Shown here piece by piece: positions 7,701-58,394 of a stretch of 64,000 bases of DNA. The notes beneath the pieces are model-generated. The model ran no database searches, had not been told where the DNA came from, and was given only the letters and a program-made list of their open reading frames with translations. The position numbers and the translations under genes were made by a program. The stretch's first letter is position 1. Every line of letters starts with the position of its first letter. The stretch covers positions 416,001-480,000 of the forward strand of contig OZ219785.1 of NCBI GenBank assembly GCA_964291285.2, read 5' to 3'. Origin of the DNA: Alphaproteobacteria bacterium (GTDB lineage: Bacteria; Pseudomonadota; Alphaproteobacteria; Bin95).

Positions 7701-10669
7701 GCCGCCGTGGCGTCGCTCGTGATCCGCAGCGTCCCCGCATACGCCTTCGTCAGCGCCACCGTGTAGGTCGCCGTGGAACCGGGCGCCACCGTCACCGGCG
7801 TCCCGGTCAGCGTGAGCGCCGCCGTGGTGTCGTCCTTGAAGGTCACCGTACGGATGTTCGACCAGGGACCCTGAAGGTTGCCCGTTCCCCCGGCGACACC
7901 CGCCATGCGATAGCCCGTTGCCCGAACCCGGACCTCGACCGATGCCCCGTCAGGATAGTTCAGCAGAAGCCGATTGCTGCGAGAGCCCGGGTTCTGTCTG
8001 GCACTGGCCTGGTTGAGACTGCGATCCGTCCAGGCGGTTTCGCCCTTCAGCCGGGTCTGCGCTCTCCACCAATGGAACTTGGCCGCGTCTTTCACATAGT
8101 CGTCCGCATCCGACAACTCGTTCGAGCCGCCGGCATGGGTCCAGGTCAGGTCGATCTGCCCGTTCGTCGTCGAGGTCGCCGCCGTCAGCACCGGGGCCGC
8201 CGGATCGGTCTTCGCCGTCACCTCGTCCGACCACACCGACTGCACCCCGGGACTGACCGCCGCAAACAGGCGGAACGTGTAGTCCGTCCCCTTCGTCAGC
8301 CCCGTCACCCGGACGCTCGTCCTGCTTCTGCCCGTGACCGTCGTGGTCGTGTTCCAGCCCCCCGTGCTCTTGTACTGGTAGCCCCAGCTCGTTATCGGAA
8401 TGCCCGACAGGCCGCTCCAGCTCAGGGTGACCGAGGCATCGCCTCCTGCCGCCGTCAGGACCGGCTTGGGAACCGTGTTCGTCGGCGTCGCCTTCACCTG
8501 GTCCGACCACACCGACTGCACACCGGGACCGACCGCGGCGAACAGCCGGAACGTGTATTCCGTGCCGATCGTCAGTCCCGTCACCGTGGTGCTCGTCGTG
8601 CTGCCGCCCGTGACCGTCCGGGTCCTGATCCAGCTGCCGCCCGCGGGCTTGTACTGATAACCCCAGCTCGCAACCGTCACACCCGACAAGGCGCTCCAGC
8701 TCAGGGTGACCCTGGCGTAACCCGGTTCGGCGCTCAGCACCGGCTTGGGAACCGCCGCCGACGCCGACGGCGTCGCCTCCACCACCGCCGACGCGGCGCC
8801 GTTGCCGCCGCTGTTCCGCGCCCGGATGCGGAAGCGGTACTCGCTGTCGTTGTTCAGACCCGTCACCGTGTGGGTCGTGGTGTCCGCGTCCGAACCGGAA
8901 ATCGCGGCCCAGCTGCCCCAGGCGGCGCTGCCCTTCCTCTGCTGCACCCGATACCTCGTGATCGAATCGTCGTCCGGATCGGTCCACGTCAGCTTCACCT
9001 GACGGTTGCCCGCCTCCGCCGACAACCCCGTCGGCGCCGCGGGGACGGCGACGGTGGGGGGATCGTCGTCGTCGGTGATGGTCAGAGTGAGTTTGCCGGC
9101 GGTCCAGCCGGACTTGTAACCAAGCAGCTTGATGGTCTCGTTCGGCTCGTCCCGGGTGTCGCCGAGAATGCGAAGGGTCCTCGTGCCCTCGGTCTCGCCT
9201 GCGGCGATGGAGACCGAAGCGTCACTGTTCGGCCAGCACCAGTCGGTATCCGCCGGGTTCAGGGGCGCGGTGCACTGGTCGCTCCCCTTGTTGGAGCCTT
9301 GGGCCGTGCCGGTGGTGATGTCAGAACCAAGTGTGATCGAAAAGTCCGCCGGCGCCGCCTCGCCGAGCGTGGCGGTCACCGTCACGTCCGTCGAACCGGA
9401 GTTGCCCTCGGTGATCGAGGTCGAGGTAGCCGACAAGGTGATCGTCTTCGTGGAAGCGGCCGCGAGGGTTGTGCCGGTGGCTTTTACGATGACGCCCGGA
9501 GGGCAGACCGCAGAAGGATTATAAGTAGAATGGGTCGCTGTAAGACTGATCTCATATTCGGTGTTGGCGTCCAGACCGGTCAGCGTGCGGCTGGTCGCGG
9601 CGGCATTCGAGATGGTGACAGAGGTCGAACTTTCCCCGGTCTTGCCGTAAGAAAACGTCCAGCCGTTGCGGAATACATCGGTCGGCGCCGTCCAGGTGAC
9701 GACAAACCCGTCCGAACGCGGCGCGAGGCTCAGGTTCGTCGGGCTGAGCACGGAAGGGCAGCTGTCCATAGGCGTCGCCGTCACCCAGCCCGTGGCGGCG
9801 CCGTCGCCGGAGGCGTTCACGGCGCGGATCATGAAACTGTATTCGGCGTCGTCTTCCAGCCCCGTTACCATGTGCCTCACGGTGTTCGCGCCCGAACCCG
9901 CCATGGCGGCCCAGGTGGCGCTGCCCTTTGCCGGTGTCTTGGCGTAGCGCAGCTTGTAGCCGGTGATCGTGCCGGCCGGCTTGGTCCACGTCAGCAACAC
10001 CTGTGTGGTGCCGGCCCCCGTCGCCGTCAGACCCGTCGGCGCCGCGGGGACAGAAGCGGTGGTGCCGTCGTTGTCAGTGATGGTGAGAATGAGCGTGTTG
10101 CTGTTCTGCGTCCAGCCATCCGAACGTGCCAGACTGTTGGGCACAAGCCTCAGGGCGACGGTTTCCCCGGTTCCCTCATCGACCGTGTCGCCCAGTATGC
10201 CGATTCCGAAACTTCCATTCGTCCCGACGTTAACATTTACAAATGCGTTGTCGCTGAATACACCGGGATAACAGATATCCGCGCCGCTGGACGGAGCACT
10301 GCAAGATGTGGTGCCAACATTGGTGTTGTCGCTTGCCGTGCTGCTGGCGGCAACAAACTCAACGTCAAATCCCACTCTAGTTGGCGTGCCCTCCCCGAGC
10401 TTGACGTTGATCGTCACATCCTTCTTGCCGGAATCGCCCTCGGTGATCGTGGTTGACGCGGTCGATATGGTGACGGTCTTGGCGGCGCGCGCGTTTTCGG
10501 GTGCGGTGAGCACCACCAGCGCGAAGAAGACAAAGACGAATCCCGCCTTCAGGCGGCGGGCGGTTCTCCCGAGGGCGCCCACCGGCTCAGCCCCGCGCCC
10601 TGACTCTTGAGGGGGGGGGGGGGTACAACGAGTTCGGGTTCGCGCGCGCGTGAGGCGCTCACATCCCAC
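4757..10669 (-). CDS. Giant autotransporter adhesin with FN3 and Calx-beta-like repeats; true start possibly ATG 10719 across the poly-C tract
   Basis: Signal-like h-region ending ARA; repeated FN3 units (VPAAPTGL...W...Y.F.IRA.N); Calx-beta-like ITEGDSG units; C-terminal beta-barrel ending in RW. Confidence 0.9.
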   Translation of the reverse strand: MGCERLTRARTRTRCTPPPPQESGRGAEPVGALGRTARRLKAGFVFVFFALVVLTAPENARAAKTVTISTASTTITEGDSGKKDVTINVKLGEGTPTRVGFDVEFVAASSTASDNTNVGTTSCSAPSSGADICYPGVFSDNAFVNVNVGTNGSFGIGILGDTVDEGTGETVALRLVPNSLARSDGWTQNSNTLILTITDNDGTTASVPAAPTGLTATGAGTTQVLLTWTKPAGTITGYKLRYAKTPAKGSATWAAMAGSGANTVRHMVTGLEDDAEYSFMIRAVNASGDGAATGWVTATPMDSCPSVLSPTNLSLAPRSDGFVVTWTAPTDVFRNGWTFSYGKTGESSTSVTISNAAATSRTLTGLDANTEYEISLTATHSTYNPSAVCPPGVIVKATGTTLAAASTKTITLSATSTSITEGNSGSTDVTVTATLGEAAPADFSITLGSDITTGTAQGSNKGSDQCTAPLNPADTDWCWPNSDASVSIAAGETEGTRTLRILGDTRDEPNETIKLLGYKSGWTAGKLTLTITDDDDPPTVAVPAAPTGLSAEAGNRQVKLTWTDPDDDSITRYRVQQRKGSAAWGSWAAISGSDADTTTHTVTGLNNDSEYRFRIRARNSGGNGAASAVVEATPSASAAVPKPVLSAEPGYARVTLSWSALSGVTVASWGYQYKPAGGSWIRTRTVTGGSTTSTTVTGLTIGTEYTFRLFAAVGPGVQSVWSDQVKATPTNTVPKPVLTAAGGDASVTLSWSGLSGIPITSWGYQYKSTGGWNTTTTVTGRSRTSVRVTGLTKGTDYTFRLFAAVSPGVQSVWSDEVTAKTDPAAPVLTAATSTTNGQIDLTWTHAGGSNELSDADDYVKDAAKFHWWRAQTRLKGETAWTDRSLNQASARQNPGSRSNRLLLNYPDGASVEVRVRATGYRMAGVAGGTGNLQGPWSNIRTVTFKDDTTAALTLTGTPVTVAPGSTATYTVALTKAYAGTLRITSDATAAARVSPASLTFTTSNYSTARTVTVTGVANGTAVINHAFRLTGATADAIPDAGTVDVTVADTPGVTVSTAALTVAEGGSRTYTMRLNTPPTSDVTITVGGASGDVTVTGSPLTFTRTDWNQPQTVTVNAGTDTDTNTDPAVTLTHGASGGGYDSVTIADVVVSVAEKDAAPLKPAGLAGAAGNGSVTLSWTDPDNPTITKWQVRQKAGSGEWGEWEDIAGSGAGTTSHEVSGLTNGTAYQFEVRAVNGAGNGAGPDAPVTATPVAPAAPAPPSGGGGGGGGGTTPAADGSVTVTPTALRVSEGSSAAYTVVLDTEPSGDVTVTVGGASGDVTVEPASLTFTTTNWDTAQTVTVRAARDEDTVDDTATLTHGASGGGYGSVTIDPVAVTVTDTTLLPVLTLAQDPAAVTEGDDIRLTVTADRALTGSLSVNLTLAARNASGFDAGDVPGGLGPRSFDAVFGAAGRTTGVVTIPTAADADTEGAEAYRITLNDGAGYAVGSDATAAGVLRDRAPGSVSRANRVNAAVLPHVAAAAMSRTLGAVTDRIEAAASGRPGSSLRFGALPSSPVGHARAARSAPPRPEEHGPTLSEILDGASFTLAAGAGEDEAPPLAVWGRGEWLSLSGSEKDVTWDGGLWSAQLGADLRVRPDLLAGAALSHARGELDTRTTGAAGGRVKGVHETTITSVHPYAAWLLPDGSTLWASLGYGTGEVRIAEEGAPSRSADLTQWSASAGGRSVLVEDAELIGGGMTRLAVKGEGSASRLRTGSDDGLAGLTARTTRLRLLLEGSYEHALAGGATLTPALEAGVRHDGGDVAEGAGLEAGAGVTWHDPAAGLTAELRARLLAAHEADRDEWGVSALVRLDPGADGRGTFLAFGPAHGRTESGLDRLFDHGLPAAASGTAPEGAESRLEAEVGHGFGLAGPGPLAVLTPWAGLSLAETGGRTLRLGARYRLGAGLSLGLEGAHRPGPAPEDSLMLRGALRW
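10611..10623 (-). repeat. C13 homopolymer in the autotransporter 5' coding region
   Basis: 13 consecutive G on the + strand. Confidence 0.9.
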
Positions 10670-10839
10670 CCGAAGAGCCGCAGGTCATGCATCCCGATAT
10701 CGCCCGGCATCCGCGTCATGACCTCATCCTCCCGTCCCGAATTCCAAGCATGCGCCGCGCCCGCAGGACCGCAGCGAACCCGCCGGTGCAACCCATAACC
10801 CGTTCGCAGGCCGGTTTCAATGCGCGCTGTGCCCGATAG

Positions 10840-11003
10840 CCCGCCATCGGCAAGATGGCGGGCGTGGCCCAGCGGTACCAGTGTGGATGGCATTGCACGA
10901 CGCCCATCTCGCCGACCGTGATATCGAAGCCGCCGCGGAATACATCGGGCAGGTGTAGGTGATCGCGCGGGCCATGGCGGGTCAACCGCGAAAGCGTCGG
11001 TGA
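10840..11003 (+). pseudogene. Tyrosine-recombinase (integrase) C-terminal remnant
   Basis: PAIGKMAG, then (frameshifted) MALHDAHLADRDIEAAAEYIGQV*VIARAM. This resembles the integrase tail LPxIGKLLGH...TxRYAHL with the catalytic Tyr position now Asp and an internal stop. Confidence 0.55.
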
Positions 11004-11113
11004 CAGCAGGGTATGGGCTGCGGGTTCCGGGGGCAGGGAGCCTGAGGCCGGCATGGAGGTTACATGCCATGGTTCCTGCAAAGACGGGCCACGACAATAT
11101 CGTTTCAGGCCGG

Positions 11114-12001
11114 CTATATGGGCGCCGAGGTCAGCGCATCATTGAGTCTGGCGAGGTCATCGCGGTTCTCCTTCGGGGAGCGCAACTCGATGGCCCGCCA
11201 GGCGCTCTGGGCGGCAAGCGCGTCGATGACTCGCGGAAGGTCGCCGGCCGGCAACGACTCCTCTTCCCGTAGAAACAGGATCAGGCCGCCGAAAACATTC
11301 TCGGGACTGAGATAGCTGCGCCCGGAATGCATTTTTTCGGCGATAATCGCGTATCGGGGACCGGTCAGTATTTGCAGGATGTCGTCCCGTCCAATACCCA
11401 GCAATTCGGCCATCCGTTCGGCCCAGTGCAAGCGCCACCACGACTTCCCGAGCGGAAAATCGTCGAATACGACACGAGCACCCCGAGGCTCAGGATTGCA
11501 GAGTGAACGCAGTATACGCCGGACGCAACGGTCCCTTGCTTTCGCCGATGCGTCATCCTCCGCACTCAAGGCGTCCTCGATATTGGACAAGCCGGCTTCG
11601 TCATGCGTGTCGCTGGCATTCGCGGCCAACCACGACGCCTGGACAAGGCCACGCTCGACCATTTCCCGCATGACAACGCCCCAGAAGCAGACATCCGCAT
11701 ACAATTCCTCGTTCCCGCCTCCGTCAGCAAGCGCAAATCCCTCCCGGATCTCCTTTTGTGTCGTAGGCGGCGGCTCGATGAATTCGTGTTCGGAAAACCG
11801 ATAATCGAAATCCCCAAGCGCACTGCAACCTTCAATGCTGTCAACAGGCAGATAGTCGTCCATATATTCGAGAAATTCCTCCTTGGAGCAACAAGCTTCA
11901 AGAAATTCCCTTTGAGCCTGTTCGGTTCCTCCCTTGCTCAGCAGGACTCGTTTTCCGAAATCATGCCATTCTTGCTTCGGATAGCGCTTCCGCTGGCCCA
12001 C
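11114..12001 (-). CDS. Hypothetical protein (295 aa), last gene of the 4-gene operon; loosely DUF6339-like
   Basis: GTG start 3 bp after the upstream stop; Trp motifs CFWGVVM and LGKSWWRLHWA. The family resemblance is from memory only. Confidence 0.7.
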   Translation of the reverse strand: MGQRKRYPKQEWHDFGKRVLLSKGGTEQAQREFLEACCSKEEFLEYMDDYLPVDSIEGCSALGDFDYRFSEHEFIEPPPTTQKEIREGFALADGGGNEELYADVCFWGVVMREMVERGLVQASWLAANASDTHDEAGLSNIEDALSAEDDASAKARDRCVRRILRSLCNPEPRGARVVFDDFPLGKSWWRLHWAERMAELLGIGRDDILQILTGPRYAIIAEKMHSGRSYLSPENVFGGLILFLREEESLPAGDLPRVIDALAAQSAWRAIELRSPKENRDDLARLNDALTSAPI

Positions 12002-12004
12002 GGA

Positions 12005-12913
12005 TCAATCCTCGTCTTCGGTATCGTCGGTTTTCAAAATAGCGTATGGCCGCATTTTCGTTGCCGCCAGACTCGGGTTGAAGTCGTCCTCGTCCCAGAA
12101 CATGTCGGTCTTTTCCTTCAGATGCCTTCCGTGTGCGAGCAATATCCGATTGATTGCACCTTCCTCATCATCATCGTGCCCGTCGCCATTGTTACATGAC
12201 ATCTGCATATAGCTATAGATGGCGCAAAGTGCCTGGGTCAGAATTGCCGACCGCATGGCGTCCCGGCTTGTCGATGGCGTCGTCTCTGTGAACGCCCGTA
12301 ATTCATCATAAACATCGCTGGCGCAGTAAAGGATCACGGGTTTCTCGTCTTCCCTGGCGTGTTCGCGTACGACAGTTTTCATTTCCCCTTTCCCGAGTTC
12401 CGTGTCTGGAAACACATGGATAAGGCTGATGAGCGAATCGTCGTCGAAACTCAGCTTCGCATGACGACCGATGCGGGCATGGCGCGGAATGTCGATCCGC
12501 TCTCCCTCCTGCCAAAGGTCCGTCAGGCCGGATCCGGGATGGTTGACGATCAGTTGCCTGTCGTTTGTCGTAACGATGCCAGGGAACACTTCCGGGGTTT
12601 CAAGATATCGGATCGGGATGCCCTGCTTCGCCGACAACGTGTCGGGAGACTCATCCCATGAGCCATCGAATAGCCACGCTTCGCGGCGGGCGCCGTTGCG
12701 GAACAGCAGCCGCGTCGAAAAGCGCGCGTCGCCCGAGACTATCCAGTCCCGAACGAAGGATACGCCGGTCAGGCGGTGCTCGACCGTCAGCATCCTCGGC
12801 TGGCCGCACCGCGCACCGCTTATCGTCGCCGCCACCTCGTAACGAATACCGTCAGCGAAACCCGCCCCATCCTCGTCGAGGACGGGGAAATCGAGAGCGA
12901 CAATCTCCGTCAT
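12005..12913 (-). CDS. Hypothetical protein (302 aa)
   Basis: ATGA overlap with the ATPase stop; acidic, globular-looking sequence. Confidence 0.75.
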   Translation of the reverse strand: MTEIVALDFPVLDEDGAGFADGIRYEVAATISGARCGQPRMLTVEHRLTGVSFVRDWIVSGDARFSTRLLFRNGARREAWLFDGSWDESPDTLSAKQGIPIRYLETPEVFPGIVTTNDRQLIVNHPGSGLTDLWQEGERIDIPRHARIGRHAKLSFDDDSLISLIHVFPDTELGKGEMKTVVREHAREDEKPVILYCASDVYDELRAFTETTPSTSRDAMRSAILTQALCAIYSYMQMSCNNGDGHDDDEEGAINRILLAHGRHLKEKTDMFWDEDDFNPSLAATKMRPYAILKTDDTEDED

Positions 12914-14763
12914 TCCGCGTCCTCCGGTTTCGCAGCATCGCCTTCCGTCTCCGACGGTCGCTCCCGTTTCAGCGAAACCAGAGGAAGGACGCCGACCGTC
13001 ATGCCTTGCGCGCTGCCGGGCGGCAAAGCCAGCACCGCCTCTACAACCACCCGCGCGTGCTTGGCCAGCCTGCCCAACGGGACGGTCTGGTCGTTCAAGA
13101 TTTCCGTGCTTCCATTTACCAGAACACTCTCCGGAGTGAACCGGTCTCCGGCGATGCTGTCGTCCCTGTCTTCGGCGACGCAGAACGAAAGCATGGCGCT
13201 GTCCCTGGGGTGCGTGTCCTCAAGTGGCGTGATTCTCACACGAACCCGCAGCCTGTCCTCTCTCCGCTCCGCCCTGGCCTCGACCCTCGCCTCGGCCGGG
13301 CGTCCGAACATCGGCGGGCGCGGGCTGTTGCCACCTCCACCGCCGCCCCTTTTTCTTTGTCCCTTTCCGGGAGGGCTGATTCCGAACCTTTCCACGCGCT
13401 TGGCCCTGCGGTTTCCGCCGACTGCCGCATCCACAGAGTCAAAAATGGGCAACTCGAACCCCTCCCGTTCGATTTTCGGCAGGCGCTCCCGAACTTTACC
13501 AGCCAGCTCTGCGAGCAACTCCCGAAGCCGGCGTTCGTCCCCATTGTTGAGTTGTCCTCTGTTAAGGCTGTTATGGTATGGGCCTTCCGCAGCCTTGACC
13601 AAGCCGAACAGCTCCTTGCCTGCCTGCGCTTGATTGACATCTATCACCAAGGAAAAACGAGCCACATCCTCCGACTTGCGCAGAGTATCGAACTCCGACA
13701 CCAGCATGGAATCGTGTCGGGCGATGAGCATATCGCTGCGAATCAGGGCAACCGACGACGCCGAAATGTCCTCGGTGTGGATATAGATATTCACTCGATC
13801 ATCATTGCTCAATTGAATCTCGGTGGCACTCGAGTCCCGAACAGCCAGATATGACTGCCATGTATGGCTCCCGGAGAGAATTTCTCCTCTTCTTCTCTTT
13901 CTCCTTTGCCTGTCTCTACCCTCCATCAACACTTTCTCGATTATACCTTGGTCCAGAATGACATTATCCTTACGATTCTTCCTGTGAATACATACCGATA
14001 ATCTTTCGTGTAAAATGGCACTGAAGAAGTGATTTGCAATTGCTGTTTCAAAATCATCACCCCACTTATCCGACAAACCGAGAATTCCGATGATACTACC
14101 ATGTCCTCTATCTCCCATGGCACGCGCCATAAATTGTGGCATATCGTTCGGGTAATCAAAACAAGGGTTGGCCTCATCTTCGGGCTTTGAATTCAATATT
14201 CTCCCGACATTACCGCGTTTGGCATCGGTGTCCTGAAAACCGGCAAGAATGGGAACGCCGGTAAATAGTGTTGTTTCTTCTCTTCGGGAAGCATAAAGAA
14301 CATACCTTAGCGAAGACAGATCATACGCTTTGAGGTGACCGACCCCGAATGATCCGCCGCTGCCTTCCCGCTTGCTGCTGCGGTGTTCTATCAGGGAATC
14401 GAGTATTTTGCTGTCCATCCCATTGCCATTGTCGGTAAACAAGAGGACAGGAATTTTCTTTTTGTTCAGCTCCGACTCAATGTTCTCAACAATCATTTCC
14501 TGCTGACGTTTGTAAGCATTTAGTTCTTTTTGAGTTTCAACCGCTTTATGCAAATACTGTCTGTAACTGTCAATATGAGGAATATCGCCAATTGAAATTT
14601 CATCAATGGTAATTTCTACACGGCACTCCGTGCCATCTGTAGTTGCATCGAGAGAATTCTGCATCAGTTCCCGTATCGGGATATCCAGACCTTCCTGCCT
14701 GTCCGCAGTCGTACTGGAGGTAAAGCCGTCCATACTGCCGTAGGGGAAATAAAGTTCGGTCAT
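12910..14763 (-). CDS. GHKL (HATPase/MORC-like) ATPase, 617 aa
   Basis: Bergerat motifs IRELMQNSLDA, FTDNGNGMD and GGSFGVG; visibly AT-richer than its flanks. Confidence 0.85.
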   Translation of the reverse strand: MTELYFPYGSMDGFTSSTTADRQEGLDIPIRELMQNSLDATTDGTECRVEITIDEISIGDIPHIDSYRQYLHKAVETQKELNAYKRQQEMIVENIESELNKKKIPVLLFTDNGNGMDSKILDSLIEHRSSKREGSGGSFGVGHLKAYDLSSLRYVLYASRREETTLFTGVPILAGFQDTDAKRGNVGRILNSKPEDEANPCFDYPNDMPQFMARAMGDRGHGSIIGILGLSDKWGDDFETAIANHFFSAILHERLSVCIHRKNRKDNVILDQGIIEKVLMEGRDRQRRKRRRGEILSGSHTWQSYLAVRDSSATEIQLSNDDRVNIYIHTEDISASSVALIRSDMLIARHDSMLVSEFDTLRKSEDVARFSLVIDVNQAQAGKELFGLVKAAEGPYHNSLNRGQLNNGDERRLRELLAELAGKVRERLPKIEREGFELPIFDSVDAAVGGNRRAKRVERFGISPPGKGQRKRGGGGGGNSPRPPMFGRPAEARVEARAERREDRLRVRVRITPLEDTHPRDSAMLSFCVAEDRDDSIAGDRFTPESVLVNGSTEILNDQTVPLGRLAKHARVVVEAVLALPPGSAQGMTVGVLPLVSLKRERPSETEGDAAKPEDAE

Positions 14764-14775
14764 CGGCGTCAGGCG

Positions 14776-16020
14776 TCAATCCGTGCAATTGCAATCATCG
14801 TAGGATTCGTCCACCAGAAATTCGGCTTCCGGCATGGCTGGCGAGCAACCCGCAGCCTCTTTGGCGGCGTCCCGGATTGCCCCATAGACCGGCCCGCCGG
14901 CCGGCCCGAAGAAGCCGAAATGCGTGACGCTCTCGTGTGTCCTGTTGCGCTTCTCTTCAATGAGGTTACGGCCGTATCGTCCTTCCATCGCCGCCCACCA
15001 GTCAATCGATTCCGGGTTCGAGGCGTCCGAGGGGCACTCCCGAGCCAGCGTCATCAGGCTGGATCGGCCTTTCATCATGCAGAACACACAATTGCCGTAA
15101 CGCCCGTCGGGGGGCAGTCCGAGATCAAACTGCTGCAACTTCCAGAACGCCGTCACGGCTTCCCTGTCAATATCGCCTTCCACCAAGGGCGCACTGACGG
15201 CCTCGCCCGGCGGCTGGTCCCCCCAAGCCCGGCCCTTCCGCCTCTGGGCGCTGGCGATACGGGCCTTCATCTTGGCGAGCCTGTGCGCTTCATCGGCCCG
15301 GATGCCGAGACAGGATTCGAATCGTATCGCCTTCGGACCGAAAAGCCTTGCAGGCGGCGTCGCCCGCCACAAGTCAGGGACGGATGAGAAATCGGCGAAA
15401 CGCTGCGCGGGCCGGGTCAGCGGACAACTCCTCACATAGCATTTCTTGTCGAGTAGAATCGCTGGCGGCGTTCGACCGCGATTCCGTCTGTGCCCGGCGA
15501 GCAGGCTTTCGTCGGTGATGCGGGAGCCTGATCCGGAATGGCCCAGCCGCTTCGGACCGTCGCCGCGACCGAACCAGTCCGACAGGAACGCATTGGACGG
15601 GGCGACCTTCATCATTCGGGTGCAGAACCGGGCCTGTATCGAAGGCGTTGCGCACTCGTAGGACAGCATTTCCTCGAACACTTCGCCCCGGTGGCGATAC
15701 CCGGCCGGATTATCCGGCCCGAAGGGGCGTTCGTTCACCAGACGGTAGGCCGGGCGGCGCGCCCAGTCGCCGCGAACCGCATCTTCATAAGTGCAGAATT
15801 CGAGCCAGAAAAAGGGCAGGCCGCGGTTTTCCGCCAGAACCTTCAGGTGCCCCAGATAGTCGTAAGTCGCCGGATGCTCGGCAGAGGTGTTCGTGAAGAT
15901 GGCGACGTCGCCGCGCGATGGATCCAGGGCGCGCGCATCCAGCAGGCGCAGCAGCATCATGCCCGACGAACGCCCGCCTGAGACTTTCACGATCCTGGGT
16001 ACGTCCGGGCCTGTTTCCAT
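14776..16020 (-). CDS. PAPS-reductase-like PP-loop (adenine nucleotide alpha-hydrolase) protein with probable Fe-S cysteines
   Basis: SGGRSS PP-loop, FTNTSAEHPATY, RFCT, GIRADE, GNCVFC and C-terminal CNCTD; GGAGG RBS before ATG 16020. Confidence 0.85.
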   Translation of the reverse strand: METGPDVPRIVKVSGGRSSGMMLLRLLDARALDPSRGDVAIFTNTSAEHPATYDYLGHLKVLAENRGLPFFWLEFCTYEDAVRGDWARRPAYRLVNERPFGPDNPAGYRHRGEVFEEMLSYECATPSIQARFCTRMMKVAPSNAFLSDWFGRGDGPKRLGHSGSGSRITDESLLAGHRRNRGRTPPAILLDKKCYVRSCPLTRPAQRFADFSSVPDLWRATPPARLFGPKAIRFESCLGIRADEAHRLAKMKARIASAQRRKGRAWGDQPPGEAVSAPLVEGDIDREAVTAFWKLQQFDLGLPPDGRYGNCVFCMMKGRSSLMTLARECPSDASNPESIDWWAAMEGRYGRNLIEEKRNRTHESVTHFGFFGPAGGPVYGAIRDAAKEAAGCSPAMPEAEFLVDESYDDCNCTD

Positions 16021-16236
16021 GCGTCCAGTGCCTCCCATCGGAGACAGAACAATATGGTTCGACGATGAGCAACACAAATCGGGACTGACAGAACCATCTT
16101 TGGATTTCTGTTCGAGGCGGCCATCGCTCCTGAAGACCCGCGCGCGGCGCAGAACGACCGCCCCGCGGGCTGCCGTGACAAGACTGTCCTTGCGGACGAC
16201 TATGGGCGGACGGCCCATCCGGTCTAGGATGCGCGC

Positions 16237-16875
16237 ATGGTGGCGACGGTGACGAGCCTTTCGTCGGCGAGTTCGACGGTCCACTATTTCGAGCAGGACG
16301 GCTACTACGCGAAGAACGATCCGGAGCACCGCAAGGCGAGCTTCTGGCATGAGGAGCTGGCGCGGGCTGCCGGGTCTCGGGCGGCATGTTTCGCCGACGC
16401 TCTTCAACGCGATTCTTCAGGGTCATGTACCCGGCACGGATATCCGGCTGGGCCGGGTGCGCGACGGCGGGCGCCAGCACCGTCCGGGGGTGGACGTCAC
16501 GCTTTCGGCGCCGAAGTCGGTCTCGCTGGCGGCGCTGCTGCACGGTGACCGTCGGGTGATCCGCGCGCATGACGAGGCGGTGCGGGAGACGCTGGACCGG
16601 CTGGAGGCGGAGCTGCTGCAGACGCGGGGCTGGGACCCGGCGACGCGGCGGCGCTCGCGTGTGAAGGCGCACGGCATGATCGCGGCGACGTTCCGGCATC
16701 TTGCGAGCCGCAATCTGGACCCGCAGCTGCACACGCACTGCGTGGTGGCGAACATGTCCCGGAACGGTGCCGGGGAGTGGCGGAGCATCGAGGCGACGGC
16801 GATCCGCCGCAACAGGAAGCTGATCGGGGCGCATTACCGCAACGGGCTGGCGCGGCGTCTGGAGGCGTTCGGTCA
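16237..16875 (+). pseudogene. Truncated, frameshifted MobF/TrwC relaxase N-terminus
   Basis: YFEQDGYY, a +1 frameshift near 16350-16380, then TLSAPKSVS and DPQLHTHCVVAN; similarity to the 18168 relaxase stops after LARRLEAFG. Confidence 0.8.
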
Positions 16876-17004
16876 CGTTCGGGATTGCCGGATTCCCGGC
16901 GCTCGTCATGTCGTCCGTCGCAGCCTGCCACGGCAGATGAATTTTCCCCCCGCCTCGTCCATGCTGTCCGTTTACGGACGCATCGGCGAGGGGGAGCGGC
17001 GAAG

Positions 17005-18114
17005 ATGACCTCGAAGAAGAAGGGAGGCAACGGCGCACCGCCGCCGGACGGTGCCGGCGAGGACATGAACCTGCTGATCGGCTGGCGCGCCGGCAGGGCG
17101 GATGGGGCGGGCGAGCCGACGCCGGACAGGAGTGCCGAGCCAGCCGCCGGACCCGGCGCGGAGACCGCCCCCGCTCCTGCCGCGGTGCTGGCGGAACTCG
17201 CCGCCGGCCAGCGGCGCATCCTTGCCCTGCTGGAGGAGCTGACCGCGAAGCCGGGCGCCACGGCGGGCGAAGACGGGGCGGACCTCGGGGAGGCGGCGCG
17301 TTCGATCGCGGCGGCGACGGAGTGGGCGAACGACATCCGGGCGGCGATGGACAGCCTGCTGGTGACGGCGGGCACGTCGATCCGGGACCTCGGGAAGGCG
17401 GAGCGGGGCCTCGCTGGCGAGGTGGCGGCGCTGAAGGCCCGGGAGGAGGGGTTCGACCGTCAGATCGAGACCCTTTCCGGCAATGCCGGGACGCTCGGCG
17501 CGCGCCTGCGGCAGCTGGACGAGGCGCGGCAGAAGCTGGACGCGCGTTCGGCCGAGCTCCAGGCGGTGAAGCAGGATATCGTCGGATACTACGATGAGTG
17601 GAGCACCGCCGCGCTGGCCTGCCGGCAGGAGATGGCCGTGCTGACCGACCGCCTCGCCGAGGGCGAGAACCTCGTTTCGCGGGTGGAGCAGGCGATCGGC
17701 CCCTGGACGGCGCGGATCGAGAAGAGTCTGGATGAGAACGCGGAGGTGCAGGAGCTGGCAGTGGCGCGGACCTCCGGCAATGTGCAAAGGCTGACCGAGA
17801 GCGGAGACGCATTCCTCAAGAGGTTCGGCTCGGTCTGGCAGGGGGCGCTGGAGGATTTCCGGAAGGAGTGGCGGAACACGCGGCGCTGGACCGTGCCGGT
17901 GCTGGCGGCGGTGCTGGTCGTGATGGTGCCGACCCTGACCGTGGTGGGGGCGGTCGGCCAGAGCAAGGTGGGCGTCTTCGCGCCCTACGACGACACGGGC
18001 AACTGGAAACGGATCGTCTGGGAGCAGCAGGGCGAGCAGGTAAAGCAGTGCCTGAAGGAATCCCTGAGGTCCGGCGAGCCCGTCATATGCACCCTCGAGG
18101 TCCAGTGGAAATGA
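17005..18114 (+). CDS. Coiled-coil protein with a C-terminal transmembrane helix (mobilization accessory?)
   Basis: Long heptad-rich segment and hydrophobic WTVPVLAAVLVVMVPTLTVVG; lies directly upstream of the relaxase. Confidence 0.7.
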   Translation: MTSKKKGGNGAPPPDGAGEDMNLLIGWRAGRADGAGEPTPDRSAEPAAGPGAETAPAPAAVLAELAAGQRRILALLEELTAKPGATAGEDGADLGEAARSIAAATEWANDIRAAMDSLLVTAGTSIRDLGKAERGLAGEVAALKAREEGFDRQIETLSGNAGTLGARLRQLDEARQKLDARSAELQAVKQDIVGYYDEWSTAALACRQEMAVLTDRLAEGENLVSRVEQAIGPWTARIEKSLDENAEVQELAVARTSGNVQRLTESGDAFLKRFGSVWQGALEDFRKEWRNTRRWTVPVLAAVLVVMVPTLTVVGAVGQSKVGVFAPYDDTGNWKRIVWEQQGEQVKQCLKESLRSGEPVICTLEVQWK

Positions 18115-18167
18115 GTGCCGTGGCTGCGAGCGGTGCGATTGCGGCCGGGCAAGGCTGATCGAGGCGC

Positions 18168-21100
18168 ATGGTTGCGGGCCTGACGGACCTCACCTCGACC
18201 ACGATGACGGTCGGGTATTTCTCCAGGGAGGGTTACTACGCGAAGAACGACCCGCGCCAGCGCCGGGCGAGCTTCTGGCACGGGGCCGGAGCGGCGGCGC
18301 TCGGCATGGCCAGGCATGTCTCGCCGCGGGCGTTCGGGCGCATCCTGTCGGGCCATGTGCCCGGCACGGACATCCGGCTCGGGCGGGTGCGGGACGGGGA
18401 GCACCAGCACCGGCCGGGCTTCGACCTGACGCTGTCGGCGCCGAAGACGGTCTCGCTGGAGGCGCTGCTCCATGGGGACCGGCGGGTGCTGGGCGCGCAC
18501 GACGCGGCCGTGAAGGCGACCCTGGACTGGCTGGAGAGGGAGCTGCTGCAGACGCGGTCGTACGATCCCGTGACCCGGCAGCGTCCGCGCGTGGCGGCGA
18601 ACGGACTGGTGGCGGCCGGGTTCCGTCACCTGACGAGCCGGGACCAGGACCCGCAGCTTCACACGCACTGCATCATCGCCAACATGACGCGCGACCGGTC
18701 GGGCGCGTGGCGGAGCGTCGAGCCGACGGAAATCCGGCGCAACGTGCGGCTGATCGGGGCGGTCTACCGCCAGGAACTGGCGCGGCGGCTGCTGGCGCTC
18801 GGGTTCGCGATCGAGGCGACGATGATCGGCGGCGTGCCGGGGTTCGAGATCGCGGGCTACGGGCGGGAGTTCGTGGACGCGTTCTCGTCGCGGCGCCGGG
18901 AGATTCTGGCGTGGCTGGACAAGCACGGCCTGCCCTGGAGCGCGGCGCTGACGCAGCAGGCGGCGCTGATCACCCGGAAGAAGAAGGCGGACAGGGACGT
19001 CGACGAGCTGCGGGCGGAGTGGAAGACGCGCGCCGAGGAGCTCGGGCTCTCCCGCGACCGCAGCATCGCCAGGCCCGGGCTCCGGCGGACGACGACCGCG
19101 TCGCGGAAGACGGCGCGCAAGGCGGGCCGGCCCTATGTGCGGACAGCGGAGGAGCTGCAGCCCGAGCCGCCGGGGCTGAGCGCGCGGGAGGTGACCTGGC
19201 GCGCGGTGGAGCATCTGGCGGAGCGGGCCCCGGTGATCCGGGAGCGCGAGATCAGGGCGATCGCGCTCGGCCATGCGCCGGGCCGGCACGGGCTGGGAGA
19301 CATCGACGCGGCGTTGGCGGGGCTGATCGGGGACGGCCACCTCGTGGAAGCGCAGCTCCGGGGCGGGCGCTCGTTCGTGACCTCGGAGGCGCTCGGCCTG
19401 GAGCGCGGGATCATGGCCATGAAGCGCCGGGCGCTGGGCGCCTCGCAACCGCTGGCGGAGGAGACGGCCGTCTCGTGCCGATTGGCCGAAACGGCGCTGA
19501 CCGAAGGGCAGCAGGAGGCGGTGCGCACCATCCTGCTGTCGCAAGACGGCATCGTGGCGGTGCAGGGCGCGGCCGGCACCGGCAAGACGACGATGCTGAA
19601 GGAGGCGCTGGGGCTGCTGGGCGGACGCAGGGCGGTCCTGCTGGCGCCCTCGGCAGCCGCCGCGCGGGTTCTGCGGGAGGAGACCGGCGTCCGGTCCCGG
19701 CCGCTGCAATGGTTCCTCACCCGCCACGGCGATCTGGGCAATGCCGCGCGCGTGGCCCGGGACCGGCAGGACCACGAGGGCGCGGTGCTGGTGGTGGACG
19801 AGGCCTCGATGGTCTCGACCGCGGAGATGGAGTTGCTGATGCGGATCGCGGCGCGGTTCCGCGTCGCGCGGCTGGTGCTGGTGGGCGACCGGCGGCAGCT
19901 GCGGGCCGTGCGGGCGGGCGAGCCGTTCCGGGCGCTGCAGGAGGCGGGCGTGGCGACGGCGGAGATGGAGGAGGTCCTGCGCCAGCGCGACCCGGCCTTG
20001 AAGGCTGCGGTCGAGCATCTGAAGGAGGGCCGTCCCCGCGAGGCGCTTCGGGAGCTCGAACATGTCCACGAGGCGCCGCAGCAGGAGTTGGGCGCGGAGG
20101 CGGCCCGGCTCTGGCTGGCGCTCGACCCGGAGGACCGGGCGCGGACGGCGATCCTGGCGCCGACGCATTTCATCCGGGCGGAGATCCACCGGGTCGTGCG
20201 GGACGGGCTTGCGCGCGAGGGCGTGCTGCACGGGCGCGAGCTGGAACTCGAACGCTATGCGAACCGCCACCTGACGGCGGCGCAGCGCGCGGACCTGCGC
20301 AACCACGAGCCGGGCGACATCGTGCTGTTCCACTCGCGCGTGGCGCCGCTGCGGGTGGAGAAGGGCGACGCCTGCCGGGTGATGCGCGCGGAGGGAGAGT
20401 TCGTCTTCCTGGAGCACCCGACGGGGCGGACGGTGCGCATCCGCCCCGGCGACAGCTGGGTGCGCTACCGGTTCGGGCTCTACGAGACGGCGCGCATCCG
20501 CATCCGGGCGGGCGACCGCATCCGCTGGACGATGAACGACGAGCGGCGCGGGCTTGTGAACGGCGGCGGTGCGGTGGTGCGGGAGATCGGGTCGCGCCGG
20601 GTGAGGTTCGATCTGGGAGACGGCAGGACCCTGTCGCTGGCGCGCACCGACCCGCAACTCCGCCATATCGACCATGCCTGGAGCACGACCCTGCATGCGG
20701 CGCAGGGCATGACAAGCGACGGCGCGATCGGCGTGCTCGACACGGGGCACGGGGCGCTGACCGGCCAGGCGGGCCTCCATGTGGAGGCGAGCCGGGCCCG
20801 GGACCGGTTCGTGCTGGTGACGAACGATCGCGAGCGGCTGGAGGAGGTGCTGGAGGCGAATGACGGCTCGCGCATGACGGCGCTGGAGGCGGTGGGCGAG
20901 AACGGGGACCCGCCGCCCGCCGCGGCGCTTGCCATGTTGCGCGGGCTGGAGGCGGACTGGCGGGAACTCGTTGCCCGGGCTGAAACGCAGGGCAGCGACC
21001 TTGTCCGCACGGAGGGCTATGCCCGTATCGTGACCGGCACGGCGATGCTGGCGGAGGACATGGCGCTTCCGGCGGACCTGCGGGCGTTCGTGGAGGAGGT

Positions 21101-23348
21101 CCGCAGCAGGGACGCGCAGGCCATTGCGGAGCGCCGGCAGGGGTTCGCGTTCCTGCGCCGGGCGGAGAGGCACGGCCGCGACTGGCCGCTGCTGAAACGG
21201 GCGGCGGCGAAGCGCGGGCGGTCGATGGGCGAACTTCCCGAACATGCGGCCTGGCTGGCGGAGGGCAGGACGCTCGCCGATACGGGACAGGAACTCCGGG
21301 AGGGCGGCGGCCAGGGCATCGCCGCCAGGATCGGCGCCGCGCTCCGGCGCCTGGTGCGGGGCCGGGAGCTCGACGAGGCGGAACGGTTCCGCGAGGCTGC
21401 GGCGCGGCACGAGGCCGGCGCGCGGGCGGCGGGCGTCGATCCCCGAGAAACGGCCGGCGCCGAAGCGCTGGCGGAATGGGCGGGGCGGCTCCGGGGCCGG
21501 GAGGTACCGCAGGCGGCGCGTCCGGCGGTCGAGGCCTGGTGCGCGGCACACACGGAACGCGGGCCCGCTTCCGGAACGCCGCCGACGCCCCGGGACAGGA
21601 AGGCCGTGCTCGGCATCGAGACGTTCCTGCTGGACTGCGACGGTCTTCTGTTCGATGCCGGCCCCGGAGGTGCTGCGGAACCGGATTCCTGGGACGAGCG
21701 GGCGGCGAGGCTTCGCCAACAGGGCCTCGGAATGCTCGGCGAGGGACCGGGCGCGAAGCTCGGCGATCCGCTCCGCATCCGCCTTGCGCGCGTCGGGGCC
21801 GAGCGCGCGCGGGTTCGCGAGGCGGTCGACAGGCTTGCGGCGGCGGCGCTGCGACGCCGCTCGGCAAGGTTCGCGGCGCTTGTCAGGACGGTGGGCCGGC
21901 AACGCCGCGGGTCCGGCTCCGACCCCGTCGACCTGCCGTCCTGGGCCGGGCTCCGCGACCGGGCGGAGGAACTCAGGGGCGAGGCGTCTCTTGAGCCCGA
22001 GGTGCGGCGCGCCGTGGACCGGGTGTTCGACCTCGATGCCCGCGCAAAGGCGGAGACCGAACCGGTCATGTCGTTCCTGAAGGCAGGCGAAGGACATCTG
22101 CGCCAAAGGGAGGGTCTGGAGGAGAAAGCCGGCGAGGCCGGGATCGCGCCCTTCGTGCTCGGGGACATGAAGGCATGGCGGGAGGGCTCCCGGGAACTCC
22201 GGGCCGTCGGCCGGCGTCTGCTGGGCGAGGCGGAGGCCGGCGCGGCCGAGGCCAGGGCCGCCTCCCGCCTGAAGGTCATGCCCCGCCTCCGGGACCGGGT
22301 GCGGGAGGTGCTGGCCGGGCTCGAGGCCGTGCGGCTGCGAGACGCGGGCGACGCCTTCATGTCGCTCGCGGACCGGGTCGAGCGGCTCGCCGTCCGGGAC
22401 GACACGCTGGCGCTCCATGCGGAAGGTTATGCGCGGGTCACCATGTACGCGAAGGAGCTGGAGGCGCTGCCGGAGCCGGCCCGCCGGAGGGCCGGGGAGT
22501 GGCTTGCCCGCGACCGCCGGTGGACCGAGGACCTGGCGTCGGTCGCCGGGCTCGCCGGCGGGTTCGGACAATCGGCCGATCCGGCCGCGCAGCGTGAGGC
22601 GGCCGGCCGGCCCGCCGTGGCGGAGGCCATCCGCCGCGAGAGGGAGCGGCTTGCGCGCGTGCCGGAACCCGCACACTGGCTTCGCTGGACCGGGGAGGAA
22701 CCGCTCGTTCCGGGCGACCGGGTCCGCGTCGGCGACGACATCATGGAAATCATCGTCGTCTCCGCAGGAGCGGCCGGCGGCATGCACGAGGACGACCTGC
22801 TGCAGGTGCGGATGCTGGATGTCGCGGGTCCGGACGAACCGCCCGGGCTTGGGGCGGTCATCCCCCGAACGGCCGAATCCCTCGTCAGCATCGGCTGCGC
22901 CCGCGCCGCCTGGTCCGACGAGAGGCTCCGGGAACTGGAACTGGCCCGGCACCGGTCGGTGCCGTCATGGCTCTGCCGGCTGGCCTGCGGCGAACCGGTG
23001 CCGGGCGACCGCATCGCCTGGACCGAGGACGCCGGCGAAGGCCGGGTCCTCACGGTCGAGGCGAAGGTGACGGCGCGCATGGACGATATCCGCTTCGGCA
23101 GCCCGAGGCTCCGGCTCGAAACCGTCGAGGCCTCGGGCCCGGACGCGCCCGAGCCGGGCAGCGATATCGAGAGGACGGTCGCCGCGGTCACCGCGCGCGG
23201 ATGCTTCCGCGCCGAATGGAGCGACGAGACCCGCCGCGCACGTATCCTGAACCCGCCGAAGCCGGTTCAGACGCCCCGGCAGGTGCAAGAAACGACCCAG
23301 GAGCAGCGCGTCGACCGCTCCGAAGGCGGCGGGCTCAGCGCGGGCTGA
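18168..23348 (+). CDS. MobF (TrwC/TraI-like) relaxase-helicase with long C-terminal extension
   Basis: YFSREGYY, FDLTLSAPKTVS, DPQLHTHC (HUH), Walker A GAAGTGKTT, VDEASM, GDRRQL and HAAQGMT. Confidence 0.92.
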   Translation: MVAGLTDLTSTTMTVGYFSREGYYAKNDPRQRRASFWHGAGAAALGMARHVSPRAFGRILSGHVPGTDIRLGRVRDGEHQHRPGFDLTLSAPKTVSLEALLHGDRRVLGAHDAAVKATLDWLERELLQTRSYDPVTRQRPRVAANGLVAAGFRHLTSRDQDPQLHTHCIIANMTRDRSGAWRSVEPTEIRRNVRLIGAVYRQELARRLLALGFAIEATMIGGVPGFEIAGYGREFVDAFSSRRREILAWLDKHGLPWSAALTQQAALITRKKKADRDVDELRAEWKTRAEELGLSRDRSIARPGLRRTTTASRKTARKAGRPYVRTAEELQPEPPGLSAREVTWRAVEHLAERAPVIREREIRAIALGHAPGRHGLGDIDAALAGLIGDGHLVEAQLRGGRSFVTSEALGLERGIMAMKRRALGASQPLAEETAVSCRLAETALTEGQQEAVRTILLSQDGIVAVQGAAGTGKTTMLKEALGLLGGRRAVLLAPSAAAARVLREETGVRSRPLQWFLTRHGDLGNAARVARDRQDHEGAVLVVDEASMVSTAEMELLMRIAARFRVARLVLVGDRRQLRAVRAGEPFRALQEAGVATAEMEEVLRQRDPALKAAVEHLKEGRPREALRELEHVHEAPQQELGAEAARLWLALDPEDRARTAILAPTHFIRAEIHRVVRDGLAREGVLHGRELELERYANRHLTAAQRADLRNHEPGDIVLFHSRVAPLRVEKGDACRVMRAEGEFVFLEHPTGRTVRIRPGDSWVRYRFGLYETARIRIRAGDRIRWTMNDERRGLVNGGGAVVREIGSRRVRFDLGDGRTLSLARTDPQLRHIDHAWSTTLHAAQGMTSDGAIGVLDTGHGALTGQAGLHVEASRARDRFVLVTNDRERLEEVLEANDGSRMTALEAVGENGDPPPAAALAMLRGLEADWRELVARAETQGSDLVRTEGYARIVTGTAMLAEDMALPADLRAFVEEVRSRDAQAIAERRQGFAFLRRAERHGRDWPLLKRAAAKRGRSMGELPEHAAWLAEGRTLADTGQELREGGGQGIAARIGAALRRLVRGRELDEAERFREAAARHEAGARAAGVDPRETAGAEALAEWAGRLRGREVPQAARPAVEAWCAAHTERGPASGTPPTPRDRKAVLGIETFLLDCDGLLFDAGPGGAAEPDSWDERAARLRQQGLGMLGEGPGAKLGDPLRIRLARVGAERARVREAVDRLAAAALRRRSARFAALVRTVGRQRRGSGSDPVDLPSWAGLRDRAEELRGEASLEPEVRRAVDRVFDLDARAKAETEPVMSFLKAGEGHLRQREGLEEKAGEAGIAPFVLGDMKAWREGSRELRAVGRRLLGEAEAGAAEARAASRLKVMPRLRDRVREVLAGLEAVRLRDAGDAFMSLADRVERLAVRDDTLALHAEGYARVTMYAKELEALPEPARRRAGEWLARDRRWTEDLASVAGLAGGFGQSADPAAQREAAGRPAVAEAIRRERERLARVPEPAHWLRWTGEEPLVPGDRVRVGDDIMEIIVVSAGAAGGMHEDDLLQVRMLDVAGPDEPPGLGAVIPRTAESLVSIGCARAAWSDERLRELELARHRSVPSWLCRLACGEPVPGDRIAWTEDAGEGRVLTVEAKVTARMDDIRFGSPRLRLETVEASGPDAPEPGSDIERTVAAVTARGCFRAEWSDETRRARILNPPKPVQTPRQVQETTQEQRVDRSEGGGLSAG

Positions 23349-25846: not shown

Positions 25847-25847
25847 G

Positions 25848-28144: not shown

Positions 28145-28146
28145 CC

Positions 28147-29019: not shown

Positions 29020-29108
29020 AAAACCGCAACCGGCCGAAAAATGTCAGCGAATAGGCGCGCTCTGTAACCGTCGCTAACACGGCCATCAGCCCTCGCGCGC
29101 GATTCGTG

Positions 29109-55061: not shown

Positions 55062-55221
55062 GTACAAGCACAAGTTTCCCGGAGCGGGGGTCGTCCAATG
55101 AAGTCGGAAACGACATACCAAACGGTGCTCGGCCGCCTGATCGCATTGAAGCGCCGACAGATGTTAGCGACGGTTACAGAGCGCGCCTATTCGCTGACAT
55201 TTTTCGGCCGGTTGCGGTTTT

Positions 55222-56094: not shown

Positions 56095-56096
56095 GG

Positions 56097-58393: not shown

Positions 58394-58394
58394 C

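Follow-up and report, generated by a model that had tools for sequence, protein, structure and literature searches.

A predicted PP-loop enzyme in the methylase slot of a PDC-M33-like operon: a four-gene cassette of an alphaproteobacterial genome and its relatives

The locus

A 64,000-nt stretch of an alphaproteobacterial genome (contig OZ219785.1; the window, in which all coordinates below are positions and to whose proteins all residue numbers refer) holds four closely spaced minus-strand genes, here genes 1 to 4, that form a cassette coding for a predicted PP-loop enzyme, a GHKL ATPase, a protein modelled as a beta-sandwich and a probable relative of the DUF6339 proteins. The cassette is a variant of PDC-M33, a multi-gene phage defence candidate (PDC) of PADLOC-DB v2 that is catalogued and uncharacterised, and it carries a new enzyme family in the modifier slot of that system; the mechanism and function proposed for it below are our interpretation of what is found at this and related loci.

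Read from gene 1 to gene 4, the open reading frames (ORFs) are spaced by a 12-bp gap, a 4-bp ATGA overlap and a 3-bp gap (Table 1), as an earlier note on this DNA, made from the letters alone, had reported, and GGGAGG precedes the ATG of gene 1 by about 10 nt. The same note's remark that the cassette is richer in AT than its flanks was also correct, the GC content being 0.49-0.58 over 11-15.5 kb against 0.64-0.76 in both flanks. A promoter and terminator scan of 10500-16600 gave sites no more numerous than in shuffled sequence, with no sigma-70-like site on the minus strand of that interval, and a repeat search of 9500-18500 found no direct or inverted repeats bounding the cassette.

Table 1. 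Coordinates of the cassette genes and of features adjoining them
Feature	Position	Strand	Product or character	Basis
Gene 1	14776-16020	(-)	414 aa, ATG start	ORF and Shine-Dalgarno sequence
Gene 2	12910-14763	(-)	617 aa	ORF, GHKL motifs
Gene 3	12005-12913	(-)	302 aa	ORF
Gene 4	11114-12001	(-)	295 aa, GTG start	ORF
Non-coding stretch upstream of gene 1	16021-16236	(-)	expected promoter region	family scans of its ORFs negative
Truncated TrwC relaxase paralogue, abutting the cassette	16237-17008	(+)		Pfam TrwC, E 1.2e-48 over 16349-17005
TrwC relaxase-helicase	18168-23348		1726 aa	Pfam

Conservation and spread of the cassette

Genomes, one for each species, were scanned with an alignment of gene 3 as the query, which yielded 17 loci, and these were then searched by tblastn with each of the four proteins. 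The four genes were found, in unchanged order, in the 17 genome loci, in one further genome and in the window, a recurrence far beyond chance. Genes 1 and 2 could be assessed in 16 of the 17 loci (L013, whose sequence begins at gene 3, was excluded); gene 2 adjoins genes 3 and 4 in 16/16, and a full-length gene 1 lies directly upstream of gene 2 in 13/16, so that the co-occurrence of the four genes in other genomes, on which the earlier note had staked its proposal, was borne out. Genome G063 holds one further complete cassette. When all ORFs of the loci were clustered, no fifth gene recurred across unrelated hosts.

Some loci depart from the complete arrangement. Gene 1 is interrupted by an ISL3 transposase gene in L007, gene 2 by a DDE_Tnp_1 transposase gene in L003, and an rve-type insertion sequence occupies the expected place of gene 1 in L012; with insertion sequences in these three loci, the cassette is decaying in some lineages. 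The expected place of gene 1 is non-coding in L011, the contig of L006 ends within gene 4, and gene 3 of L017 has a frame change.

The record titles of the 17 loci place their hosts in the Alpha- and Gammaproteobacteria, Nitrospirales and Nitrospina, and those of at least five loci point to sponge-associated candidate taxa. The GHKL proteins of a gammaproteobacterial and a Nitrospina locus are 78% identical, and the cassette therefore moves between phyla. It was present in 2 of 401 sampled genomes of the window's phylum, the window's own included, and is thus both rare and horizontally spread. Defence models run over the 125 ORFs flanking the 17 loci matched mad8 (6), mad3 (5), NsnB (4), several type II methylases, AbiEii (1) and REase_II (1), and the flanking ORFs also matched many housekeeping families, among them ABC transporters, epimerases, histidinol dehydrogenase, EPSP synthase, SufBD and RuvB.

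PDC-M33 and the exchanged modifier slot

The PADLOC candidates are described as catalogued because they recur within known defence loci ("guilt by embedding"), and the greater part of them as untested. A search of the 401 genomes with the PDC-M33A model revealed canonical PDC-M33 operons in the window's own genome, on another contig (contig 3 of G000, L025 7146-11798; E 6.9e-96), and in a second genome (E 5.1e-97). Both consist of a C5 cytosine methylase gene (PF00145) followed by PDC-M33A, PDC-M33B and PDC-M33C, the last equivalent to Pfam DUF6339. In the operon of the window's genome the methylase and ATPase ORFs overlap at L025 8243-8246 and are thus translationally coupled. Its M33B ORF has 207 aa, compared with about 278 in relatives, and is followed by a 228-bp gap before M33C; this copy may therefore be truncated.

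When metagenomes were scanned with an alignment of M33B, 41 loci were obtained, 24 of them with sequence upstream of M33A and 17 truncated there by the end of the contig. M33A is immediately preceded by an orthologous C5 methylase in 24/24 of the assessable metagenome loci and in 2/2 of the genome loci, and gene 1 occurs in 0/41 of the metagenome loci. Two more divergent variants of the ATPase, B and C genes (L027, L029) also have a C5 methylase adjacent.

Gene 2 is, as judged from profile comparisons given below, a divergent homologue of PDC-M33A, and genes 3 and 4 appear to be remote homologues of PDC-M33B and C, which agrees with the earlier note's remark that the trio resembles modules normally found beside cytosine methylases. 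In both systems a modifier is followed by a GHKL ATPase of about 620 aa, a B protein of about 280 aa and a DUF6339-type C protein of about 250-300 aa. They differ in that the modifier is a C5 cytosine methylase in canonical PDC-M33 and a PP-loop enzyme, probably an iron-sulfur (Fe-S) one, in the window's cassette, and also in that the PADLOC B and C models miss genes 3 and 4 and the C-terminal 180 or so residues of the ATPase are unalignable. The PP-loop gene 1 fills the slot held by the C5 methylase; since a methylase always stands upstream of the canonical trio, the PP-loop enzyme occupies the slot of a DNA-modifying enzyme. The word "unassigned", which the earlier note had applied to the whole operon, thus holds for gene 1, which represents a new family, and not for the trio, which belongs to a catalogued candidate family.

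A literature search found no paper that mentions PDC-M33 or DUF6339, the tables defining the PDCs being a place that may hold composition or tests. Searches combining PAPS reductase and GHKL in a defence system found no description of such a pairing, and those on GHKL, anti-phage and cytosine methyltransferase returned nothing describing this cassette.

The GHKL ATPase

Sequence comparisons identify gene 2 as a divergent PDC-M33A, a GHKL ATPase of the Bergerat fold. The three Bergerat motifs noticed earlier (E32/N36/D39, D111-x-G-x-G115 and G137-S-F-G-V-G142) are all conserved in 16 gene 2 orthologues. With hmmscan, gene 2 matched PDC-M33A at E 9.2e-25 over residues 31-434, far below the scores of the two canonical members on the same model, and hhalign against an alignment of 16 canonical M33A sequences gave 99.9% (E 6.9e-33) for columns 9-437 against 22-439 only. 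Matches to other ATPase models were weaker, namely Pfam HATPase_c (E 6e-4), the NCBIfam sacsin ATP-binding model (1.5e-4) and TmtA of Tiamat (E 5.4e-4, residues 32-150 only), and the only PDB sequences retrieved, MORC3 and MORC4, were non-significant (E 0.53 and 0.96) and confined to the G1 box. The protein is laid out as an M33A-homologous N-terminal part of about 440 residues, a linker rich in Gly, Pro, Lys and Arg, and a C-terminal domain of about 130 residues. The C-terminal portion of about 180 residues remained unaligned to M33A by hhalign, and its domain is a candidate for reading the mark or for contacting the modifier.

Genes 3 and 4

Gene 3 has 63 homologues among 5.8 billion protein clusters, none of them with a Pfam family, and its nearest clusters in the ESM Atlas are unnamed hypotheticals; a search of PDB sequences gave 0 matches at E<=10. 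The AF2 model, with a predicted local distance difference test (pLDDT) score of 79.3, shows a beta-sandwich like those of immunoglobulin and fibronectin type III (FN3) domains (residues ~11-158), with a helical portion and then an acidic tail after it. Its fold matches were ApaG/PDIP38 and FN3 domains, at Z<=8.0, with no nuclease fold among them. The PDC-M33B model did not match gene 3 by hmmscan at E<=0.1; hhalign with 26 M33B sequences gave 82% (E 1e-5) over 157 collinear columns from the N-terminus, and an R-D-(S/T)-x-x-x-R motif is common to gene 3 and M33B.

Gene 4, with 44 close homologues among the same clusters, had no direct match in Pfam, PADLOC or NCBIfam, only a meaningless one among PDB sequences (E 0.57) and nothing scoring above 0.76 in the ESM Atlas. 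Its kinship emerged through intermediates. A small-alignment hhalign with three DUF6339 proteins gave 0.6%, and comparison of hidden Markov models with the sequences of PDC-M33 neighbours (a set of 20) was marginal for both proteins (gene 3, E 0.0085; gene 4, E 0.21). The gene 4 profile gathered 254 representatives at E<=1e-3, and of 106 sequences scanned (105 distant gene 4 matches and the window's own protein) 30 matched DUF6339, 12 and 9 matched two PDC-M33C models and 5 matched PDC-M33B. The gene 4 alignment so widened, reached by way of the 105 intermediates, matched M33C by hhalign at 95.1% (E 3.2e-8). On these grounds gene 4 is taken to be probably a divergent member of the DUF6339/PDC-M33C superfamily.

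Natural fusions of about 580-610 aa join a gene 3-like to a gene 4-like part, the N-termini of some matching both gene 3 and M33B profiles, and a fusion of M33B to DUF6339 also exists. A predicted complex of the two proteins reached an interface score (ipSAE) of 0.63 (median of three runs), compared with 0.01 for the best of three controls; the mark used was passed by 58/80 solved complexes and by 2/110 mismatched pairs, counts that hold roughly here, where our own alignments were used. The runs agreed in at least 37% of contacts, the partner pLDDT was at least 68, and the predicted interface includes conserved stretches at residues 66-81 and 143-147 of gene 3 and 224-233 and 267-274 of gene 4. 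The modelling thus supports binding between the gene 3 and gene 4 products.

The PP-loop enzyme

Gene 1 appears, from its motifs and its fold matches, to represent a new family of PP-loop ATP-pyrophosphatase-like enzymes. The PP-loop and the RFC, CxxC and CxC motifs noted earlier proved to be conserved in 14 orthologues. SGGRSS, at residues 14-19, is invariant, and R-x-C133-T...K138 (R-F-C133 in the window), N-C311-x-x-C314-x-x-K and C410-x-C412-T-D are invariant or nearly so, the last of these (CNCTD in the window) forming the very end of the protein. The arrangement of C133, C311 and C314 with C410 and C412 fits ligands of a 4Fe-4S cluster plus a sulfur-relay Cys pair, and the enzyme is probably Fe-S. 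Fe-S APS reductases combine cluster ligands with a mobile catalytic tail, which the Cys pattern of gene 1 parallels; for DndC, a three-Cys cluster plus a Cys dyad is described (PMC10853773).

Among PADLOC models, gene 1 matched SspD (E 1.7e-9), BrxP (5.9e-4) and DndC (0.069). It had no Pfam match at E<=0.1 and no NCBIfam match, neither a DNA_methylase match nor a DNA-binding domain in Pfam, and its profile gave 0 matches to PDB sequences at E<=1. The best fold matches of its model were all PP-loop/HUP enzymes. Foldseek placed TtuA best (E 6.4e-3, probability 0.84), and a VIA search placed the PAPS reductase 7rge at the top (Z 7.4, root-mean-square deviation (rmsd) 3.7, 137 residues aligned), with Cap9 (9nto; Z 7.3, rmsd 4.0, 142 aligned) among the three best; a FAD synthase PAPS domain, ThiI, LarE, NcsA, TilS and APS reductase were matched as well.

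Two paralogues of gene 1 occur outside the cassette. One, in G063 (L080, 9248-12777 region), has 442 aa and 38% identity, keeps all motifs (with SGGRTS) and is free-standing, immediately downstream of a gene for a type IA topoisomerase. The region, with DUF2857, DUF7831, KilA-N and Rep3 genes, resembles a plasmid or an integrative and conjugative element, and the paralogue could thus be an orphan modifier on mobile DNA. The other, in G403 (L085, 6682-10153 region), has 423 aa and 30% identity, ends in CQCTN and has a C5 cytosine methylase gene 37 bp upstream of it and, downstream, a gene for a 295-aa protein that has no PDB relative; the locus may be another small system, pairing both modifiers. 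The DNA-related neighbours of these paralogues support the view that the gene 1 family acts on DNA. The window's genome also has two strong genes for class-V aminotransferases of the desulfurase type, which could serve gene 1 as sulfur donors.

Comparison with known systems

In agreement with the earlier note, no desulfurase, DndD/E, SspB/C, methylase or nuclease family was recognised in the cassette by scans with Pfam, PADLOC and NCBIfam, the libraries used throughout this section. The closest precedent for the reading proposed below is BREX type 4, in which the PAPS-reductase-domain protein BrxP stands in place of the methylase PglX; jointly with BrxC, and with the desulfurase SufS in trans, it makes phosphorothioate (PMC12914056). 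As in that system and in Dnd/Ssp, a PAPS-reductase-like PP-loop protein would stand in the methylase's role as self-marker; gene 1 has local matches to SspD and BrxP and Cys residues suited to a 4Fe-4S cluster and a dyad, and its desulfurase may likewise be supplied in trans. The window's cassette differs in having no DndD/SspC/BrxC NTPase, DndE/SspB or PglZ/BrxL, in that the Pfam PAPS_reduct model does not detect gene 1, and in the company of gene 1, which consists of a GHKL ATPase and two proteins without assigned function.

Among systems built on GHKL ATPases, those of the Tiamat/SACSIN type are described as defence-associated and often beside DNA methylases (bioRxiv 10.64898/2026.09.30.754977). 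Gene 2 resembles them through its weak matches to TmtA and to the sacsin ATP-binding model, and differs in length (617 aa against the 1063 positions of the TmtA model), in having two extra partner proteins and in having, by Pfam, neither the PD-(D/E)xK nuclease NOV_C/DUF3883 nor DUF3684. The prokaryotic MORC and paraMORC ATPases were reportedly linked to restriction-modification (R-M) operons by Iyer, Abhiman and Aravind in 2008, and the cassette is like them in joining a GHKL ATPase in one operon with a putative DNA-modification gene, MORC3 and MORC4 being the best, non-significant, PDB sequences for gene 2; it is unlike them in that no S5-fold transducer and no associated helicase or endonuclease was identified in it. 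From classical type II R-M it differs in that none of the four proteins matched a methyltransferase or a restriction endonuclease.

Proposed function and alternative explanations

The exchange of the modifier slot suggests a hitherto undescribed way of marking DNA as self. The reading we favour, to which we would give about an even chance, is that the cassette is a modification-based system of self/non-self discrimination, for defence or exclusion, on a PDC-M33 chassis with a PP-loop modifier; that its substrate is DNA, that its chemistry involves sulfur, that it serves defence and in which direction it discriminates we infer from the gene content and motifs described above. Gene 1 would use ATP to adenylate a position in DNA and would then transfer a group to it, most plausibly sulfur from a housekeeping cysteine desulfurase, by way of a [4Fe-4S] cluster on Cys133, Cys311 and Cys314 and of the mobile C-terminal Cys-x-Cys tail, and the transferred group would constitute the mark on resident DNA. 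The GHKL ATPase would be a dimerising, ATP-driven DNA clamp, and a heterodimer of the gene 3 and gene 4 products would interrogate DNA and block that which lacks the mark. To be active the trio would probably depend on the modifier or its mark, in the manner of BREX or SspABCD-SspE. A more elaborate proposal, tentative and in our view possible rather than probable, has gene 1 as a new DNA-modifying PP-loop Fe-S family with an undescribed mark, which would be read by a nuclease-free GHKL clamp and heterodimer, and has the orphan copies on mobile elements as counter-defence; the mark might then be a thiolated base (possibly cytosine) or a phosphorothioate made without a DndD/SspC/BrxC-type NTPase.

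A number of results weigh against the favoured reading. Two genomes, in whose assemblies an intact gene 1 was nowhere found, keep an apparently intact, full-length trio, its ATPase motifs included; in one (G401) an ISL3 element divides gene 1, of which the first 178 or so residues are missing, and in the other (G402) there is no gene 1 match at all. The SspD match of gene 1 spans only 37 residues (118-154), and the PADLOC SspD model is unspecific, having matches to ordinary genes in 7 of 14 control genomes. PAPS_reduct (PF01507) did not match gene 1 even at E<=1 in a six-frame search of the genome. The AF2 model of gene 1 is weak (pLDDT 61.9), and its best Z of 7.4 falls in the range (Z<8) that the VIA tool calls common, so that the fold assignment rests on the motif and on the coherence of the matches. 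The homology of gene 3 to M33B is moderately supported. The known phosphorothioate pathways all need a P-loop NTPase (DndD, SspC or BrxC) according to PMC12914056, and none was found among the four genes with the three libraries or as a conserved neighbour. The family libraries, the gene 3 fold and PDB searches revealed neither a nuclease nor another effector domain among the four proteins. The flanks of the 17 loci mix defence and housekeeping genes, and the defence-island enrichment that the earlier note had named as a check is not claimed. PDC-M33 is itself an unvalidated candidate, for which the literature search found no experimental validation, and the modified DNA, phage protection and enzymatic activity of the cassette are all presumed.

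The persistence of intact trios where gene 1 is lost bears most directly on how modifier and trio cooperate. In a classical R-M system, gene 1 would mark the host DNA and the GHKL trio would autonomously destroy or block whatever is unmarked; the place of gene 1 in the methylase slot, the translational coupling of methylase and ATPase genes in the canonical operon of the same genome (L025) and the carriage of the cassette near relaxase genes are all in keeping with this. An autonomous module should nevertheless be self-toxic in G401 and G402, and no nuclease is recognised in the cassette, which together make this explanation unlikely. The R-M-like logic proposed in the earlier note accordingly survives insofar as gene 1 stands in the modifier slot, and is weakened by G401 and G402 in its classical form, in which the trio restricts by itself. 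Because intact trios persist without gene 1, dependence of the BREX or Ssp kind is favoured over classical R-M, and the trio is probably dependent on the modifier or the mark rather than an autonomous restriction enzyme. Tolerance of the orphan trio and the absence of a recognised nuclease would equally suit a module with no role in immunity, such as one for mobile-element maintenance, epigenetic regulation or DNA compaction, acting as a MORC-like clamp on marked DNA and possibly useful to symbionts. The flanks that are not consistently defence islands, the position of the window's copy among relaxase genes and the sponge-associated hosts of at least 5 of the 17 loci point the same way. We nonetheless consider such a role unlikely, given that the chassis was catalogued by PADLOC through its repeated occurrence within known defence loci, and that transfer across phyla, decay by insertion sequences in 3 of 17 loci and rarity (2/401 genomes) are typical of defence genes.

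Two other explanations concern the substrate of gene 1. PP-loop enzymes act on varied substrates, no DNA-binding domain was recognised in gene 1, and Cap9 is among its three best fold matches, so that it might act on a protein or a nucleotide in the manner of the QueC-family proteins Cap9 and QatC (of CBASS type IV and Qat) and may serve to prime or control the GHKL complex or to produce a small-molecule signal. The exchange of its slot with a DNA methylase, the paralogues that adjoin topoisomerase and C5 DNA methylase genes, and a Cys pattern like that of Fe-S sulfur-transfer enzymes and unlike that of QueC make this improbable. The second would have gene 1 as a tRNA thiolation enzyme of the TtuA, NcsA or TtcA type that merely travels with the trio, and would account for TtuA as the best Foldseek match, for NcsA and ThiI among the VIA matches and for a PP-loop accompanied by Cys ligands. 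It is hard to reconcile with the tight operon coupling of gene 1 in 13 of 16 assessable loci across phyla, with DNA enzymes as its partners and with a rarity in sampled genomes that is unlike housekeeping tRNA enzymes, and we regard it as very improbable.

Genomic surroundings

The truncated TrwC copy that abuts the cassette partly repeats the 5' end of the full-length relaxase-helicase gene, from which it is 1.9 kb distant, as shown by direct repeats at 16233-16354 and 18164-18285 (71%) and at 16420-16569 and 18350-18499 (83%). The earlier note had placed the cassette between an integrase remnant and relaxase genes, and only the relaxases, identified by Pfam as TrwC, were recovered. The 182-aa ORF at 10552-11097 that was supposed to be the integrase remnant has no Pfam family match, and of the 119 matches to PF00589 that all six frames of the whole genome gave at E<=1, none lies at 10.4-11.2 kb of the window. 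On each of the five contigs, many of those 119 tyrosine recombinase matches stand side by side in twos or threes of equal score, and the genome is crowded with copies of recombinase-bearing elements.

Directly to the left of the cassette, a 1970-aa ORF (4757-10669, minus strand) encodes a large surface protein that contains six or more fibronectin type III repeats and whose C-terminal part resembles an outer-membrane anchor. On the other side, an ADP-ribosylglycohydrolase gene (24019-25008, minus strand; Pfam E 5.8e-48) lies between the relaxase gene and a Mu-type transposase gene. The latter is carried on a perfect 3748-nt inverted repeat (25332-29079 and 55162-58909) whose arms enclose about 26 kb and have just outside them a 315-nt pair at 99%, an arrangement like that of a composite transposon or a recent inversion.

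Contigs from three runs of one study were also compared with the locus. Run X1 contains the cassette without difference and X2 a variant about 96-99% alike. In X3, 11409-16216 is uncovered and the relaxase side is covered from 16263; because no contig bridges the gap, absence of the cassette from X3 and a boundary of its insertion are not established.

Significance

To our knowledge, the established DNA sulfur systems (Dnd, Ssp, BREX type 4 and Tdp) all pair a PAPS-reductase-like protein with a P-loop NTPase. In the cassette a GHKL ATPase takes the partner's part instead, and the PP-loop enzyme, itself very divergent, stands exactly where the sister system has its cytosine methylase; the cassette is also a candidate source of a new DNA modification. 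One chassis with two modifiers amounts to a natural experiment on what the trio of GHKL ATPase, B and C proteins reads and how a trio with no recognised nuclease acts. DUF6339 and PDC-M33B and C also gain a testable context, in the form of a predicted B-C heterodimer supported by natural fusions. Should the tentative proposal of a new DNA-modifying PP-loop Fe-S family be true, the cassette would represent both a new self-marking chemistry and a MORC-like, non-degradative exclusion of foreign DNA.

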